From assembly GCA_002431915.1 (NCBI GenBank), contig DJEP01000026.1, positions 9,034-73,033 on the forward strand: 64,000 bases of DNA. Direction: 5' to 3'. The DNA is from Lachnospiraceae bacterium UBA5895. Lineage in GTDB: Bacteria; Bacillota; Clostridia; Lachnospirales; Lachnospiraceae. Below the pieces are notes generated by a model. It made no database searches. It was given only the letters and a program-made list of their open reading frames with translations, and was not told the origin of the DNA. The position numbers and the translations under genes were made by a program. Of the stretch, positions 7,866-30,157 are shown piece by piece (within the stretch, counting starts at the first letter, position 1; each line of letters starts with the position of its first letter).

Positions 7866-7938
7866 AATATTTATATCCTTTCTTAGTACTACTCGGCTTC
7901 TACGCGTTTCGCGCTCCCGGATCTTAGTATTATACATT

Positions 7939-8051
7939 GATGTTGGGGTCAAAAACCCCCGACTTTGATGCTCATATCGGGACGGGTCCTAAGGTCTTTC
8001 ACCCACCTATGAGCAAGCTCATGTGGGTTTAGACCTTTTGACCCTGGCATC
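7939..8051. mobile_element. 113-bp MITE-like element with 14-bp imperfect terminal inverted repeats and a 7-bp flanking direct repeat
   Basis: GATGTTGGGGTCAA (7939-7952) is inverted relative to TTGACCCTGGCATC (8038-8051). ATACATT occurs directly outside both ends (7932-7938 and 8052-8058). An internal hairpin is ACCCACCTATGAGC-AA-GCTCATGTGGGT. Confidence 0.55.
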
Positions 8052-9147
8052 ATACATTAAAACGGAAAAGAATTACATCGCCATCCTGCACCACATAATC
8101 CTTGCCTTCCATGCCGACCAGACCTTTCTCACGGGCAGCTGCCAGAGACCCCTGCTCTAAGAGATCCTTGTAATTCACAACTTCTGCCTTGATGAAACCT
8201 CTCTCGAAATCGGAGTGGATCTTACCGGCTGCCTGAGGCGCCTTGGTACCGATCTTAATGGTCCATGCTCTGGTCTCATCCTCACCTGCGGTCAGGAAAC
8301 TCATCAGTCCCAGGATGTGATAACTTGCCTTGATCAGCTTCTCCAGACCGGATTCCTTTAATCCCAGATCATCTAAGAACATTGCCTTCTCATCATCGTC
8401 CAGCTCAGAGATCTCTTCCTCGATCTGTGCACAGATCACGAATACTTCGCTATTCTCACTTGCTGCGAACTCTCGAACTTTGCCCACCATCTCGTTGGAT
8501 GCTCCGTCGTCTGCCAGATCGTCCTCGGATACATTTGCCGCATAGATCACAGGCTTGTAGGTCAGCAGATTGTATTCCTTTAACAGTGCCAGTTCATCCT
8601 CATCGGTGACTTCCAGGCTCTTCGCCATCTTGCCACTCTCCAGATGCTCCTTGATCCGCTCTAAGAGTGCCAGCTCCTTGGCATAGGTCTTGTCCATTCT
8701 GGCAGCCTTGACTACCTTGGACAGTCTTCTCTCCAGTACTTCCAGATCTGCGAAGATCAACTCCAGATTGATGGTCTCGATGTCGCGCAGAGGGTTTACA
8801 CTGCCGTCTACGTGGATGACATTGGGATCCTCGAAACATCTTACCACATGTACGATGGCATCCACTTCACGAATGTTGCTTAAGAACTGGTTGCCCAGTC
8901 CTTCACCCTTGGAGGCACCCTTTACCAGACCTGCGATATCTACGAATTCGATGACTGCGGGAGTTACCTTCTTAGAATGGTACATCTCGCCCAGTGCCTT
9001 TAATCTGTCGTCCGGAACTGTTACCACACCTACGTTAGGGTCGATGGTACAGAAAGGATAGTTGGCAGATTCCGCTCCTGCCTTGGTCAGGGAATTGAAA
9101 AGTGTACTCTTTCCCACATTGGGAAGACCTACGATACCCAGTTTCAT
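8050..9147 (-). CDS. ychF: Ribosome-binding ATPase YchF
   Basis: 365 aa with G1 motif [12 protein letters not shown], and full-length collinearity with the YchF/OLA1 family by eye. Confidence 0.95.
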
Positions 9148-9271: not shown

Positions 9272-10282
9272 CTATTGTTCAAAATATGCTGTAATTCCGG
9301 ACAGCAGTCCCTCTGCCAGCAGTTGAAGCGTGGCATCACTGTGGTCGGAATATGCATTTCCCAGTTCCATGTCCACGGACGGGATCGTGCTGTAGGAGGT
9401 CTGGGTCAGGTCAATACTCATATGTCCTTTCCCGTAGATCGTTGCCCCCTGCTCCCGCAGTTCTTCCACAAGATCTGCTCCCAGGGCATCGTGCTGCTGC
9501 CAGTGGGATGACACCGGTTCCATACTTTTCAGTTCCTCCGGCACCGAGATATAAAAGCATCCTTTGTCATAATTTTTACCGTCACCACTGTCCCAGTGCA
9601 GCGCAATATGACAGTCCGCCACATTGTTGCAGATCACGGTCCGCGCCACATTATCTAACTGTACATCCTCGCCATCCCGGAGCATCAGCACATCATACCC
9701 GGAAGCAAGAAGCTTATCCCGCAGGATCTGCGCCATTCGCAATGTAACCGTCTTCTCCGGTGTCCCGTCCTGAAATGTCATGCCGCCGGAGACTGCCACA
9801 GCTTCCGTAGCTCCTGCCGCCGTGCTGCCTCCCGTGGTCTTGGCAGAGCCGTCCGGGTGGCACAGAGTCTTCACCTTCGCGCCGCCCGCCGTACCATGTC
9901 CGGCATTAACACCGATAACGATACCCTTACGTCCGGATTCCTCCGGCGCTCGATACAGCACCGCCGCTCCGGAATTGATTTTGGAATGATCCGCATACTC
10001 CCATGTAGGATCCAGGGTGATCTGCAGCAGATTCGCGTATTCCGGAATCATAGTTACTTCTGTCTCCGGTACTGTTTCTGCCACCTCAGTCACTGTCTCT
10101 ATAGTCTCCCGCTCCATGACCGTAGCTTCTATCGCTTCTACCGTCTCTATGGTCTCCGCGGTGTCGCTTCCCATACTCTCCGTACTTTCAGAACTTTTCT
10201 GCGTACCACAAGCCGTCATGCTCACGGACAGTATCACAACAGCTGCCGTCACTGCTGTTCTGTATTGTTTTCTGTAAAGCAT
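9272..10282 (-). CDS. N-acetylmuramoyl-L-alanine amidase-like lipoprotein
   Basis: 336 aa with a lipobox (SVSMTACG) and a Glu/Thr/Val-rich linker. The C-terminal domain resembles Amidase_3 by eye (GVNAGHGTAGG, HIALHWDS). Confidence 0.7.
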   Translation of the reverse strand: MLYRKQYRTAVTAAVVILSVSMTACGTQKSSESTESMGSDTAETIETVEAIEATVMERETIETVTEVAETVPETEVTMIPEYANLLQITLDPTWEYADHSKINSGAAVLYRAPEESGRKGIVIGVNAGHGTAGGAKVKTLCHPDGSAKTTGGSTAAGATEAVAVSGGMTFQDGTPEKTVTLRMAQILRDKLLASGYDVLMLRDGEDVQLDNVARTVICNNVADCHIALHWDSGDGKNYDKGCFYISVPEELKSMEPVSSHWQQHDALGADLVEELREQGATIYGKGHMSIDLTQTSYSTIPSVDMELGNAYSDHSDATLQLLAEGLLSGITAYFEQ

Positions 10283-10300
10283 ATCCTTTTACTCCTCCGA

Positions 10301-10340
10301 TATGAAAAGAACCACAGCTGTGAACTTACAGCTATGGTTC
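10301..10340 (-). terminator. Intrinsic terminator after the chemoreceptor gene
   Basis: 14-bp stem (10307-10320 / 10327-10340) with one G-U pair only in the minus-strand RNA, followed by UUUUC. Confidence 0.75.
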
Positions 10341-10388
10341 TTCTGTTCCCTCTTCCTTATTCCGCTTATTCTGGAACACATCCTCTAA

Positions 10389-11654
10389 TCAGCCACGCAG
10401 TTTGAAGTGATCTAACAGCTCGTTCAGAGTCGTTGCAGATGCAGACAACTCCTCGCTGGTAGCGGAAGTCTCCTGGGCTGCTGCGGAGTTGGACTGAATA
10501 ACATCGTTGATGTCTTCCACGCCCTTCTTGATGTTGCTGACAGATGCTGCCTGTTTGTCGGATGCAGTACGGATATTGGCAACCTCCTGGATAATCTGAT
10601 CCAGTTCGGACATAACTTCCTGCATTGCATCATTGGTCTCTTTGGTGACCTTATTACCTACTTCCACTTCATTCAGTGACTCTTCGATCAGCTTCTTGGA
10701 TTCTACTGCAGAATTTGCGCTTTCCTCCGCCAGCTGTCTGATCTGATCAGCTACCACTGCAAATCCTCTTCCAGCCTCTCCGGCACGTGCTGCCTCGATG
10801 GAAGCGTTCAGGGACAACAGATTGGTCTGGGATGCGATATTTTCAATATCCGCAATAATCTTCTCAATGTTCTGGGTCGTTCCGTTGATCTTCTTCATGG
10901 CAACGACCAGTTCATCCATCTTCTTCTGACTGTTGGCAGCCTCGATACCCACCTGTTTTGCCTTGTCATGAACAATATCGGTGGACTTGGTATTCTCCAG
11001 TACCTGACCGGTTACTTCTTCTACAGTAGCCACCAGTTCTTCCACGGATGCTGCCTGGTTGGTAGCGCCCTCCGCGATATCCTGTGCACTGACAGCCAGC
11101 TGATTGCTTCCCGAAGATACCTGTTCGGAAGAATCCTGAATGCCGTGCATGGTCTCACTGATCTTGTTTACCATCTCATCCAGTCCATCCAGCACACTGC
11201 GAAGCTGACCTACATAAGCATCCGGACAGCTGCTGTGTACATCGAAATTGCCTTCGGAGAAGTGCTCTACGATGTCAAACAGATCGGATACTACTTTCTT
11301 CAGAATGCCGGCTGCTGTCTCAAAGCTGTCGGAAAGTCTTCCCAGTTCATCCTCTGATTCATAAGGTGTTCCTATTTCAAAATCACCGGCTGCAATCTTC
11401 TCGGATGCCACTACCAGGTTCTCAATCGGATCCACTAACATTTTGGCAAGCATCTTCGACATAGCTGCGTTAAATGCAATGCCCAAAGCAACTAATATTA
11501 CAATAATTACGATCCCCACGTAACTTTTTGACTGTAACATTCCCACAATTGCAGCAACCGCCAACACCACATATAAAATATCCATGATGCGGAACACAAA
11601 AGAAAGCTTATTTTTGATTGGTTTCTCCCTCAGCATTTCTTCCAGTTTTTTCAT
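10389..11654 (-). CDS. Methyl-accepting chemotaxis protein (two TM, HAMP, no obvious extracellular sensor domain)
   Basis: 421 aa. The conserved MCP signalling hairpin region is present ([39 protein letters not shown]). Confidence 0.88.
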
Positions 11655-26771: not shown

Positions 26772-27087
26772 ATATCTTTAGATTTTAAGGGGGATTTCTT
26801 ATGAACGGCTTTTACGGATCCATCCTGTTGCAGTGGGTTCCCGCATTGTTTACCTTTTAAAAGAAGATTTCGATGTGATGTCCGGGGCATTTCTGCTATG
26901 GTTTGTAGCAGAAATCATTTCCTTTTCTCCGAACACTTATGACAATAATAAATTTTTATATGTGACCTATGTATTCGTCTGCTGTCTCAGCGCCGGATAC
27001 GGCATAGACCTGCTACGTTCTCTGAAAAAACGTTCCGCGCGCTCTATCCCTGCATCTTCGACAACGGAGAAATTCAGATCTACCGGA

Positions 27088-27765
27088 TCACTCAGTAGCC
27101 TCATACTCCGATGTACGAAGTTCTGTGGTATCGCTTTCCCGGGGTCTGCCGAAATTCTGAACAACCCCAATCAGCTGTCCGGACAACAGCACAGTGAACA
27201 GAGAATATCCGATCCTTCTCACCGAGATATAGCTTAACGACATCACCAGTACGATCAGATCCGTCATCAGATACACCCACTGGATCTTCCATCCGGTGGC
27301 ATGGGAAATACTCATGGCCAGAGCATCATCTCCACTGGGAGCTCCGCCGATCCGCACGCACAATCCGGCACCCACACCGACAAACAACGCTCCCACCAGT
27401 GCCGCCGCAAGGGGCTGCTCCGCCAGTCCGGGCCACAGATGCGGAAACTGTTCACAGATCTTATAAGTCCCGGAGAATCCGACGGTAGCCAGCGCCGAAT
27501 AGGCAATGAATTCCCTGCCCAGCAGCTTCCATCCCAGCACATAGCACAATACATTCATGATACCGCCGGTCACCGCCGGGGATATGCCGGTCCAGTGCTC
27601 CAATAACAGTGTCGCTCCCAGTACCCCACCCTCGGTGACACCGGAGATGGAATGCACATGATATAAACCAAATGCCAGAATAAAACTTCCCAATAAGGTT
27701 ACAGCACAATTTTTCAGGGTGAGTTTTTTTAAGGCTTCTTTCCATTCGTGAATCTGTAAGTTCAT
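27088..27765 (-). CDS. YitT/YczE-like integral membrane protein
   Basis: 225 aa and polytopic. Gly-rich TM segments (GVTEGGVLGATLLL, GGAPSGDDALAMS) resemble the YitT family by eye. A candidate promoter TTGAGA-17-TATGAT lies upstream. Confidence 0.6.
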   Translation of the reverse strand: MNLQIHEWKEALKKLTLKNCAVTLLGSFILAFGLYHVHSISGVTEGGVLGATLLLEHWTGISPAVTGGIMNVLCYVLGWKLLGREFIAYSALATVGFSGTYKICEQFPHLWPGLAEQPLAAALVGALFVGVGAGLCVRIGGAPSGDDALAMSISHATGWKIQWVYLMTDLIVLVMSLSYISVRRIGYSLFTVLLSGQLIGVVQNFGRPRESDTTELRTSEYEATE

Positions 27766-27849
27766 TTTAATCTTCCTGTCTTTTTATCCTTTATACTTTA
27801 CTATCATACCTTTTTTACTTAGTTTTCTCAAGTGGAAAATCCGGACACG

Positions 27850-27875
27850 AAAAAGCGCCCCGGTTACCCGAGACG
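27850..27875 (-). terminator. Intrinsic terminator (strand-specific stem)
   Basis: Minus-strand RNA is CGUCUCGG-GUAA-CCGGGGCG followed by CUUUUU. Two G-U pairs would be C-A mismatches on the plus strand. Confidence 0.6.
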
Positions 27876-27886
27876 TTTTTCCGATT

Positions 27887-27953
27887 TTCTTATGAGGGGG
27901 GGAGATAGTGAGTTCATCAACTATCTAAAATACATATTACAGGGAAAATGTGT
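27887..27953. repeat. Core copy 1 of a tandem 184-nt duplication (candidate sRNA on the minus strand, or 27-codon sORF 27892-27975 on the plus strand)
   Basis: 65 of 67 nt are identical to 28071-28137. It contains hairpin AGATAGT-N10-ACTATCT and a G7/C7 tract. Confidence 0.8.
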
Positions 27954-28035
27954 ACAGAATGTGTACGAATTCTAACTTTATTCTAAAATGAATCTTGAGG
28001 TTTTATAAAGTATCCTTTTGTATTATAAGGAACCA

Positions 28036-28066
28036 AAAAGCCTCAGGCATCGTACCTGAGGCTTTT
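28036..28066. terminator. Bidirectional intrinsic terminator
   Basis: Perfect 12-bp stem AAAAGCCTCAGG / CCTGAGGCTTTT with a 7-nt loop and U-runs available on both strands. Confidence 0.75.
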
Positions 28067-28070
28067 CGGT

Positions 28071-28137
28071 TTCTTATGAGGGGGGGAGATAGTGAGTTCA
28101 TCAACTATCTGAAATACATATTACAGAGAAAATGTGT
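28071..28137. repeat. Core copy 2 of the tandem 184-nt duplication (candidate sRNA on the minus strand, or 27-codon sORF 28076-28159 on the plus strand)
   Basis: See copy 1. It lies within 133 nt downstream of the recJ stop. Confidence 0.8.
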
Positions 28138-28196
28138 CCATTTTGTGTTCAAAAAATAAAAAATTACGAATGTGATTCTGAACAGTTACGAAACTA

Positions 28197-29960
28197 TCAA
28201 CAATAGTTCTGCATGACAAACTGCACTTCTGTCCTACCCTTATAGGTATTTTGACCAACCTGGTATACTACAGACAACAGGAAATTCCCTCTTCCGGCAT
28301 AAAGTGCTTCTTCACTTCCGATACCGTATTTTTCATTTAAGAAAGCTCCCAGTCGTTCCAAATCTCCGAAAAACACCAATGTCTGCGTATTTCCTTCCGG
28401 CGTTTTCACCCGGAACCTGGCGCAGGTCTTGTTGGCGCCCATTTTAAATCCCGCCTGGAAAATCAGATTCTTCTGGGCAAAAAGGGGTCTGGGATTCCCG
28501 GTTCCGAAGGGCTCTAACAACGCCAGTTCCCCGGCCAAAGCGTCGTCCGCATAACCCATGGGCATTGCTACATCAATATGTACTCTGGGAATAAAATCAT
28601 CTTCTGTCAACGCACAATTTTTATTGAGAGCAATCCGAAGCGGCTCAATATCTTCTTCCCGCATGGACAAGCCCGCTGCCAGTTTATGACCACCGTATTT
28701 GGTAAAAAACTGTTTTACCTGCGTCATGGCATCATACATATGATAAGTCTCGATGGAACGTCCGGAACCTTTGACCCCGTCTTCCCCTTTTGTGAGAATA
28801 AAAACAGGATGATAATACTTTTCCCGGACTTTTCCGGCAATGATTCCGGCAATGCTCTCATGAACCTCGGGAAGATAGATTACCATGACCTTATCTTCTG
28901 TCATATGATGTTCCAAAATATACTCATCCGCCCTCTGAATCCCCTGTACCGTCAGATTCTTGCGGCTTTCGTTTAAATCCTTCAGCTCTCTCGCCGCTGT
29001 CATGGCATCTGCTCTGGTAAAGCTCTGCAAAAGCTCCAGCGCCCGTTTTGCAGTATCCAATCTACCCGTGGCATTCAGGCAGGGACCCAGTACAAAGCCC
29101 AGGTGGTACACACTCAGACGGTCCGGGGCGATTTCATTGACTTCCATCAGCGCTTTCAGTCCCTCGTTATATCCCTTTTGGATCCGTTTCAGACCTTCCT
29201 TTACCAGAATACGGTTCTCATCCTTTAACTCCATGACATCACATACCGTAGACAGTGCAGCGAATTCCAGTAATTCATCCCGGAGATTTACCAGTCCCGG
29301 ATTTCCGGTCTTCTCCGTGATCGCCTGAATCAGTTTCAGCGCCACAACTCCACCGCAGATCCCCGGAAAAGGATAGGTACAATCCGCCCTCTTGGGATCC
29401 ACCACCGCCAGTGCCGGAGGCAGCTGTTCCCTACGTTCTCCGTTTTCTTCTATGTAAGGGACCTCATGATGATCTGTCACAACAACACGCATGCCCAGGG
29501 AATTTGCAAGCTCAATCTGAGGTGCCGCCGCAATTCCGTTATCGCAGGTGACGATCATGCCGACACCTTCCCGCTTTGCTTCTTCAATCAGATGTTCATT
29601 CAGTCCGTATCCGTCATGGATTCTGTGGGGAATTGCCGTATCTACCTGTGCTCCCAGCATCTGAAATACTTTGGTCAGAATATAGGAAGCACAGATTCCA
29701 TCCACGTCATAGTCTCCGATGACCCGGATATGCAGTCCTTCTTCTACCGCTTTCAAAATCTCCTCCACCGCTTTATCCATATCCTTAAGCAGCCAGGGAG
29801 AATAACAGTCCTCCAGTTTTCCGTAGAGGAATTTCTGTATCTGACTCTCTTCCGTCAGATCACGGTTTCTAAGAATCCTCGCCGTCACCGGGCTGATGTG
29901 GAATTCCTTTGCCCATTTATCAAAATCTGCCTTCTTCGCAGCCACGTACCATTTTTCCAT
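28197..29960 (-). CDS. recJ: Single-stranded-DNA-specific exonuclease RecJ
   Basis: DHH family motifs (VIGDYDVDGI, VVTDHHE) and a DHHA1-like region. Start placed at MEKWYV (29960, SD GGGAG). The track start is 29993. Confidence 0.9.
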   Translation of the reverse strand: MEKWYVAAKKADFDKWAKEFHISPVTARILRNRDLTEESQIQKFLYGKLEDCYSPWLLKDMDKAVEEILKAVEEGLHIRVIGDYDVDGICASYILTKVFQMLGAQVDTAIPHRIHDGYGLNEHLIEEAKREGVGMIVTCDNGIAAAPQIELANSLGMRVVVTDHHEVPYIEENGERREQLPPALAVVDPKRADCTYPFPGICGGVVALKLIQAITEKTGNPGLVNLRDELLEFAALSTVCDVMELKDENRILVKEGLKRIQKGYNEGLKALMEVNEIAPDRLSVYHLGFVLGPCLNATGRLDTAKRALELLQSFTRADAMTAARELKDLNESRKNLTVQGIQRADEYILEHHMTEDKVMVIYLPEVHESIAGIIAGKVREKYYHPVFILTKGEDGVKGSGRSIETYHMYDAMTQVKQFFTKYGGHKLAAGLSMREEDIEPLRIALNKNCALTEDDFIPRVHIDVAMPMGYADDALAGELALLEPFGTGNPRPLFAQKNLIFQAGFKMGANKTCARFRVKTPEGNTQTLVFFGDLERLGAFLNEKYGIGSEEALYAGRGNFLLSVVYQVGQNTYKGRTEVQFVMQNYC

Positions 29961-30157
29961 AGATTCTCCCGCTTTCGTATCAATAAAAGCCATGCATCCT
30001 TTTTATGGACACATGGTTTATTATAGCATGAATAAAAGTCTTGTGCATCTTCTCTTTTTATGCTATAGTCAACTCAATTTCTATATGAAATTTCTTACAT
30101 CCGGCGTTTCGCCATTTTTTCAAGCAACTTTTAATTACACCAAGGAGGATTCTGCCT

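Follow-up and report, generated by a model that had tools for sequence, protein, structure and literature searches.

Two paralogous non-coding small-RNA (sRNA) genes are predicted on the minus strand of the 64-kb window (the whole stretch of DNA that was analysed), where they form a tandem unit placed between the recJ ORF (28197-29993, minus) and a YitT-like membrane-protein ORF (27088-27765, minus). With reasonable though not high confidence, they are read as genes conserved in the Lachnospiraceae, each an independent predicted minus-strand unit with an activator-dependent promoter and a trans-acting RNA as its product. Judged by comparison of the sequences, the predicted gene family is real and strongly conserved, has no counterpart in Rfam 15 and did not turn up in the literature that was searched; it represents a new family of a familiar kind, that of the Firmicute C-rich regulatory sRNAs, here under a promoter predicted to be of the response-regulator type. 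The original prediction had offered a C-rich sRNA pair as its minus-strand reading of this unit, and this reading is supported by more than 200 homologous copies, as are its parts (a 7-bp hairpin, an unpaired C-run and a non-homologous terminator of its own), all of which are present for each core.

Organisation of the tandem unit

The unit is a direct repeat with a spacing of 184 nt (27886-28014 and 28070-28198) and an overall identity of 77%. Pairwise alignment of the two repeat units gave mismatches at 2 of 67 positions between the cores (27887-27953 and 28071-28137), with both core flanks strongly diverged and hardly alignable, and thus bore out the 184-nt tandem duplication with near-identical 67-nt cores from which the analysis had started. 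The 38-nt centre of the core (AGATAGTTGATGAACTCACTATCTCCCCCCCTCATAAG) occurs exactly twice in the 64-kb window and was recovered in none of 100 shuffles. The core had been taken as RNA in its entirety; this holds for the part that makes up the first 40 nt of the RNA, but the 5' third (ACACAUUUUC.CUGUAAUAUGUAUUU) is most likely promoter DNA, carrying the second direct-repeat half and the -10 hexamer. The core is a composite of the second ACACA repeat, spacer, -10 box, discriminator and first 40 nt of the RNA, which explains why it is conserved while the flanking sequence is not; the flanks diverge because AT-rich DNA lies upstream and a terminator constrained in shape alone lies downstream.

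In copy A, nearest recJ, the direct-repeat box GAACACA-AAAT-GGACACA (28133-28150, minus) consists of two heptamers with an 11-nt period, centred at approximately -33 and -44 relative to the predicted start, and the -10 hexamer TAATAT (28118-28123, minus) is found 9 nt past the second repeat and 7 nt before the hairpin. The predicted sRNA of approximately 84 nt (28027-28110, minus), placed by folding (z = -6.3) and a terminator scan, comprises the hairpin (28110-28087), a C7 run (28086-28080), UCAUAAGAAA (28079-28070) and a terminator hairpin (28071-28031, G+C core 28066-28036) with a U-tail, all on the minus strand. Copy B, nearest yitT, has the box GTACACA-TTCT-GTACACA (27949-27966, minus) and the same -10 hexamer TAATAT (27934-27939, minus), and its predicted sRNA of approximately 76 nt (27851-27926, minus; fold and terminator scan) comprises a hairpin (27926-27903), a C7 run (27902-27896), UCAUAAGAAAA (27895-27885) and a terminator (27883-27848, G+C core 27875-27856 with two G-U pairs). 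The promoter pattern ACACA-N6-ACACA-N9-TAnnnT matches at 28118-28148 in copy A and at 27934-27964 in copy B.

The two terminators differ: that at 28036-28066 is symmetric, and that at 27875-27856 was called on the minus strand only, owing to its two G-U pairs followed by a T-run. The claim that each core is followed by a terminator not homologous to the other, one of them strand-specific through G-U pairs, was therefore confirmed by the terminator scan and the fold.

Predicted promoter architecture

The predicted sRNA gene has its own predicted promoter, conserved in position and sequence (99-121 of 129 copies, among the matches listed). Its most prominent element is a direct repeat, G.ACACA-N4-G.ACACA, with an 11-nt period, which is kept in 121 of the 129 copies and is separated from the -10 box by 9 nt in 99 of these 121 (among the matches listed). 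Within the same listed matches, the commonest -10 hexamers were TATAGT (35 copies), TATGAT (25) and TATAAT (12), together with similar ones; the T, A and final T positions each carry approximately 1.8 bits, giving T-A---T peaks, and the logo over 114-121 copies reads ACACA.TTTg.ACACATTTt.....TAT.aT. AT-rich DNA precedes the repeats, and its conserved T/A positions share their phase. The consensus contains neither a TTGACA-like hexamer 16-18 nt before the -10 box nor a TG extension.

The distance from the -10 box to the A of AGATAG, at which the hairpin starts, is 6-9 nt (among the matches listed), and from this distance transcription would start at the hairpin base, so that the predicted transcript probably begins there. 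An AT-rich, -10-like element is also present upstream of the repeats (TTTATA-18-TAGAAT in copy B) and leaves open a longer predicted transcript that would span them. A promoter of this design, without a -35 hexamer, would need an activator bound to the two 11-nt-phased G.ACACA repeats; what suggests this dependence is that the -35 box is missing, that the repeats are phased at 11 nt and that 9 nt separate them from the -10 box. By pure inference, the activator may be an OmpR/PhoB-type response regulator, in an architecture like that of CiaR at the csRNA genes. Several consensus sequences were compared with the repeat by eye, namely those of a canonical sigma-A -35, an extended -10, ECF, SigH, SigK, the Spo0A box, WalR, PhoP, CtsR, NrdR and LexA, and were rejected, as none of them agrees with it in sequence and spacing alike.

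Across the related loci scanned, the ACACA-N6-ACACA motif is found almost only at the sRNA promoters. In metagenome contigs, the full layout ACACA-N6-ACACA-N9-TAnnnT also precedes two protein-coding genes, one for a lipoprotein (MKKNKNKMSIWL...VGCSN...) and one for a coiled-coil membrane protein (MAEGKEISAEDEEL...), with sites at approximately 4653 in L145, 3371 in L205, 614 in L237 and 8167 in L242 (+), and in L164 and L202; these genes may be members of the putative sRNA regulon or chance matches.

Structure of the predicted RNA

The predicted RNA measures 67-93 nt from the hairpin base to the terminator (median 81 nt). It opens with a sequence-invariant hairpin, AGAUAGUUGA-loop-CUCACUAUCU (AGAUAGU-U-GA, loop, UC-ACUAUCU; 7 bp plus 2 bp), continues with an unpaired run of 5-10 C residues and UCAUAAGAAAA, and ends in the terminator. 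Across more than 200 copies, the arms of the hairpin, the loop bases that come first (UGA) and the linker do not vary. At the first pair of the hairpin, 103 sequences have A-U and 7 have G-U. The distance between the arms ranges from 8 to 48 nt, with length variation confined to the loop: four loci (L061, L171, L229 and L232) carry a self-pairing loop insertion of approximately 36 nt, the Kineothrix group (L029, L032, L063 and L103) has a duplicated 3' arm with TTCACTATTTAAAAA inserted ahead of CTCACTATCT, and in three metagenome sequences (L187, L213 and L239) an inserted A provides a partner for the bulged U, so that 9 pairs are contiguous. Covariation analysis, suggested in the original prediction as a check, recovered the 7-bp 5' stem with RNAalifold but detected zero compensatory changes. 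The 5' hairpin shows no compensatory substitutions because its stem never varies, and its pairing rests on thermodynamics, loop indels and G-U changes only.

The C-run is the variable element of this part of the RNA. It measures 6 nt in 106 and 7 nt in 23 copies of the pattern scan (among the matches listed), and 5 nt (23 sequences), 6 nt (49), 7 nt (16), 8 nt (6) or 10 nt (1) in 95 metagenome sequences. Its length varies among close relatives and paralogues across all loci (27896-27902 and 28080-28086 in the window); for example, copy B of the window has 7 residues, its L001 orthologue 6, and copies in L116 and L009 have 8. The run looks like a slippage-prone length polymorphism within an otherwise invariant predicted RNA. 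Elsewhere in the window, upstream of murE, the minus-strand sequence TCATAAGAAATCCCCC (26789-26804) contains the UCAUAAGAAA and C-run motifs in reverse order, and may be a chance occurrence or a decayed fragment.

A terminator hairpin with a T-rich tail was identified in 123 of 124 distinct copies, with medians of 15 bp and -22 kcal/mol, and comprised 120 different stem sequences, such that the sequence turns over in almost every lineage (among the matches listed). Also among the matches listed, 148 G-U pairs occur in 86 terminator hairpins, and the more stable fold is that of the RNA strand in 91 cases and that of its complement in 24. MAFFT alignment could not register the terminators, and consequently no consensus terminator was derived and terminators were assessed sequence by sequence. 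In two loci, L009 and L046, the terminator stem reaches over the UCAUAAGAAAA/C-run region and would, as modelled, mask the proposed seed.

Homologues and distribution

Homologues were collected in two scans. The first employed the exact pattern CTCACNNNCTCCCCCC followed by an optional base and TCATAA, which forces 19 positions, against one representative genome per GTDB species, and yielded at least 119 stretches with the unit, nearly all of them from Lachnospiraceae. Carriers among the matches listed include Acetatifactor, Eisenbergiella, Fusicatenibacter, Oliverpabstia and Waltera, as well as Diplocloster, Suilimivivens, Bariatricus, Kineothrix, Parablautia and others. The second, independent scan was run on metagenome contigs with only the promoter and the 5' hairpin arm as anchors, leaving the 3' part unconstrained; approximately 115 of its 128 matches are family members. 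In 95 distinct metagenome sequences the free 3' part reads CTATCT (92 of 95), then C5-10, then almost always TCATAAGA. As this part was unconstrained and is nevertheless conserved, the conservation is real and no ascertainment artefact. On these alignments, more than 100 Lachnospiraceae species share the predicted sRNA in almost identical sequence, and homologous cores, on whose presence in other genomes the original prediction depended, were found in more than 200 copies.

A blastn search of a phage collection returned three unannotated faecal contigs with a common minus-strand anatomy, deposited as 'Bacteriophage sp.' (L001-L003; GenBank MT839274, MT836133 and MT836006). At least two of these records (MT839274 and MT836133) are ordinary bacterial chromosome with a recJ-like gene adjoining the sRNA copy, and the records with recJ-like sequence are probably virome contamination. 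Several metagenome-assembled genomes (MAGs) labelled Bacteroides, Tidjanibacter or Anaerovibrio carry a Lachnospiraceae sRNA locus (in the set L026, L035, L049, L074 and L094), and the L035 copy hardly differs from that of Fusicatenibacter; the copies in MAGs of other phyla probably reflect mis-binned contigs. L049 (Alphaproteobacteria) was rejected as a family member, being a chance pattern match without the hairpin. The unit had no match in the plasmid collection.

No Rfam 15 family matches the unit, either at E<=10 in 27600-28400 or at the gathering score across the whole window, and searches of the literature by topic and by literal sequence returned no match to the sRNA family and no described sRNA for the Lachnospiraceae. 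The earlier impression that neither of its two readings corresponds to a known family thus agrees with both Rfam and the literature searched. The Rfam look-alikes SurA, FsrA and miRNA precursors were discarded as generic hairpin or terminator resemblances far below threshold. The sole Rfam family above threshold in the window is the Clostridiales-1 RNA (RF01699) at 7884-8052 (minus), with 59.4 bits against a gathering score of 48 and E = 1.6e-10.

Age of the duplication

Orthology was compared in the window, L001, L081 (Waltera intestinalis) and L116 (Acetatifactor sp.). Upstream of the recJ-proximal copy these four genomes show identities of 0.83-0.97, and upstream of the distal copy identities of 0.91-0.95; the paralogues are 0.64-0.68 identical in the same upstream region and their terminators are unrelated. 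With orthologues close and paralogues distant, the duplication is older than these four species, and by this comparison the tandem pair of the window is an old duplication common to the Waltera/Acetatifactor relatives. Selection or gene conversion had been put forward to account for the near-identity of the cores; the data agree with purifying selection but not with recent gene conversion, given orthologues at 0.83-0.97 and paralogues at approximately 0.65. Pairs with almost identical terminators are present in three Acetatifactor-like loci (L045, L051 and L073), which points to separate or more recent duplications there. Tandem-pair spacings of 173-223 nt occur in several lineages, and some genomes, e.g. 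that of Diplocloster hominis, have copies at two separate loci. The sRNA is a small multi-copy family; the tandem pair of the window would affect dosage or keep two separately tunable copies.

Proposed function and the case for a protein partner

Acting in trans, the sRNA would pair through its single-stranded C-rich stretch AUCUCCCCCCUCAU with G-rich ribosome-binding regions and would thereby block the translation of mRNAs encoded elsewhere in the genome, with the 5' hairpin serving as 5'-end protection or as a protein handle. Trans-acting mRNA pairing is the weaker part of the proposal. In the neighbouring DNA, seed duplexes at the ribosome-binding regions of murE, recJ and pfkB showed background complementarity and none was recurrent, and 4,278 start regions in related loci (approximately 1 Mb) together with 620 in the window returned background duplex energies or the antisense strand of the sRNA gene. 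As these scans covered a tiny, biased part of any genome, the lack of targets is weak evidence.

An sRNA that binds or titrates a protein recognising the invariant hairpin and C-run, with no mRNA pairing, is rather unlikely but is the alternative that best survives. It would account for hairpin arms, UGA loop bases and a linker held invariant in more than 200 copies while loop length and terminators vary, and for a C-run that floats between 5 and 10 nt, which a single continuous duplex would tolerate poorly; the background complementarity returned by the target scans of neighbouring DNA also fits, with the reservation that a search so limited weighs little. However, no candidate protein is consistently encoded adjoining the sRNA gene, and a C-rich unpaired stretch between a 5' hairpin and a terminator is typical of pairing sRNAs in Firmicutes (csRNAs, PMC3091779). 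Within the preferred reading of a trans-acting RNA, the invariance of the hairpin arms beyond the needs of a seed or of 5'-end protection, together with the floating C-run, leaves room for a sequence-specific protein partner.

Genomic context

The unit is usually flanked by recJ or a pfkB-type sugar kinase and, on its other side, by murE. Among the matches listed (approximately 126 loci), the first ORF downstream reads in the same direction as the unit in 58 loci and converges on it in 54; murE follows on the unit's own strand in 24 loci, and in 28 it lies upstream and points away from the unit. Past the last terminator of the window and ahead of the yitT-like ORF, a sigma-70-like promoter, TTGAGA-17-TATGAT, is located at 27831-27803, in agreement with the separate yitT promoter that had been proposed there. 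The occurrence of both orientations, the convergent neighbours and the separate yitT promoter indicate that the predicted unit is a self-contained transcription unit which was inverted in place during evolution.

These arrangements make it very unlikely that the unit is a cis-acting leader or attenuator, riboswitch-like or protein-dependent, governing read-through into yitT and murE. Such a leader would be in keeping with the 24 listed loci in which murE follows on the same strand, 46-340 nt past the terminator, with a terminator placed right behind a conserved element, as is usual for attenuators, and with the existence of tandem riboswitches. However, 54 of 112 loci (among the matches listed) have a convergent gene downstream, about half of the genomes carry the unit in the opposite orientation with respect to recJ and murE, yitT has its own sigma-70-like promoter behind the last terminator in the window, no Rfam cis-regulatory family matches, and no conserved antiterminator pairing exists because the terminators are unrelated between lineages.

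A DNA-level element, such as a binding-site array, a recombination or integration site or a small mobile repeat, has marginally less in its favour and is equally hard to sustain. The 11-nt-phased repeats are DNA-like signals, the unit was inverted in place, and approximately 190 nt separate a copy from an integrase-like gene in Bariatricus massiliensis and two IMG/VR contigs, where a second, variant copy follows after another 400 nt. Against this stand the arm spacing of 8-48 nt, which a dimeric DNA-binding site would not tolerate, the G-U pairs, which make the structures strand-specific, the presence of one or two copies per genome at a syntenic site in place of a dispersed repeat, and the terminator that ends every copy. 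The integrase-adjacent loci are L004, with copies at 10271-10350 and 10691-10767, and likewise L006 and L020 (Bariatricus massiliensis), two of these contigs being filed as viral in IMG/VR; in all three the first copy is situated approximately 190 nt downstream of a tyrosine-recombinase/integrase-like ORF and the second, approximately 400 nt further on, has the variant 3' side CACACAACTATCT. A prophage or integrative element may use the sRNA gene as its site of integration.

The remaining reading, paralogous 27-codon small ORFs on the plus strand, can be dismissed: both window copies do contain an ATG-initiated 27-codon ORF with aligned stops, as had been described, but coding is refuted by C-run indels that shift the frame (C6 homologues read MRGEIVS..., C7 homologues MRGGDSEF..., and the 91% identical L001 orthologue, with C6, is frameshifted to 11 codons), homologous ORF lengths range from 7 to 43 codons, no SD sequence is present and most of the ORF would overlie the variable promoter spacer. 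It is the CAU of UCAUAAG that, read on the opposite strand, supplies the plus-strand ATG, and the ORF traverses the C-run. A TTG/ATG mini-ORF on the minus strand, starting from the hairpin loop, likewise fails on the frame shifts in the C-run. Annotators are warned that ATG-initiated mini-ORFs opposite the sRNA are not genes.

Comparison with known systems

For the predicted sRNA genes, the closest parallel in design, though not in sequence, is the CiaR-dependent csRNAs of streptococci (ccnA-E). The csRNA genes carry TTTAAG-N5-TTTAAG 10 nt from the -10 box, the CiaR box being defined as NTTAAG-N5-TTTAAG located 10 nt upstream of the -10, and the csRNAs themselves have an unpaired anti-SD stretch ahead of the terminator and occur as several paralogues per genome (PMC3091779). 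Both systems share an 11-nt-period direct repeat in place of the -35, approximately 10 nt upstream of the -10; a short RNA, predicted in the Lachnospiraceae, with a 5' stem-loop, an intrinsic terminator and, left unpaired, a pyrimidine- or C-rich stretch that could pair with ribosome-binding sites; and paralogous copies, several to a genome and some of them adjacent. They differ in host, the Lachnospiraceae (Clostridia) as opposed to Streptococcus, and have no sequence similarity, the repeat being G.ACACA in the Lachnospiraceae and TTTAAG in the csRNA genes, so that the CiaR box is not matched. The 36-nt 5' part is invariant family-wide, whereas the csRNAs are diverse. The unpaired motif of the Lachnospiraceae RNA, CUCCCCCCUCAU, has its CAU 3' of the C-run, whereas the order in the csRNAs is CAU...CCUCC; with the CAU in this position, the sRNA cannot cover both the SD and the start codon as the csRNAs do.

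Two further systems were considered. RoxS/RsaE (RF01820) of the Bacillales, the family cited in the original prediction, is a trans-acting RNA under two-component control whose unpaired C-rich motifs pair with G-rich SD regions; it has several such motifs distributed over three hairpins in approximately 100-115 nt. The present predicted RNA resembles it as a Firmicute RNA with an unpaired C-rich motif and a predicted trans action, but has a single C5-10 run between one hairpin and the terminator, and the RsaE covariance model (RF01820) gave no match at E<=10 in 27600-28400 and none at the gathering score window-wide. At VR-RNA, VirT and VirU of Clostridium perfringens, a response regulator binds two direct repeats just upstream of the core promoter; these VirR boxes are 12-bp repeats of a LytTR-type regulator and the RNAs that they drive are much longer. 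The likeness lies in a clostridial sRNA gene with two direct repeats upstream of the core promoter (predicted in the present case), and the differences in the spacing and sequence of the repeats and in RNAs that are unrelated in sequence.

Implications for the Lachnospiraceae

The Lachnospiraceae are among the most abundant human and animal gut bacteria, and to our knowledge no sRNA regulator has been characterised in this family. The predicted sRNA provides a probe of approximately 80 nt usable across many genera (minus-strand site AGAUAGUUGAUGAACUCACUAUCUCCCCCC), and the promoter motif G.ACACA-N4-G.ACACA-N9-TATAAT could help to isolate the regulator and to identify the other members of the regulon. 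Cultured carriers suitable for such tests include Waltera intestinalis (two copies in WCA3-601-WT-6H), Fusicatenibacter saccharivorans (one copy), Oliverpabstia intestinalis, Diplocloster and Bariatricus. We tentatively suggest, as a possibility that goes well beyond the preferred reading, that the 36-nt module of hairpin, C-run and UCAUAAG, unchanged in sequence in more than 100 Lachnospiraceae species, may be the dedicated output of one conserved two-component system, with a hairpin read by a protein and slippage of the C-run tuning its activity. If this were true, a csRNA-like regulon would have been found from sequence alone in a major gut family.
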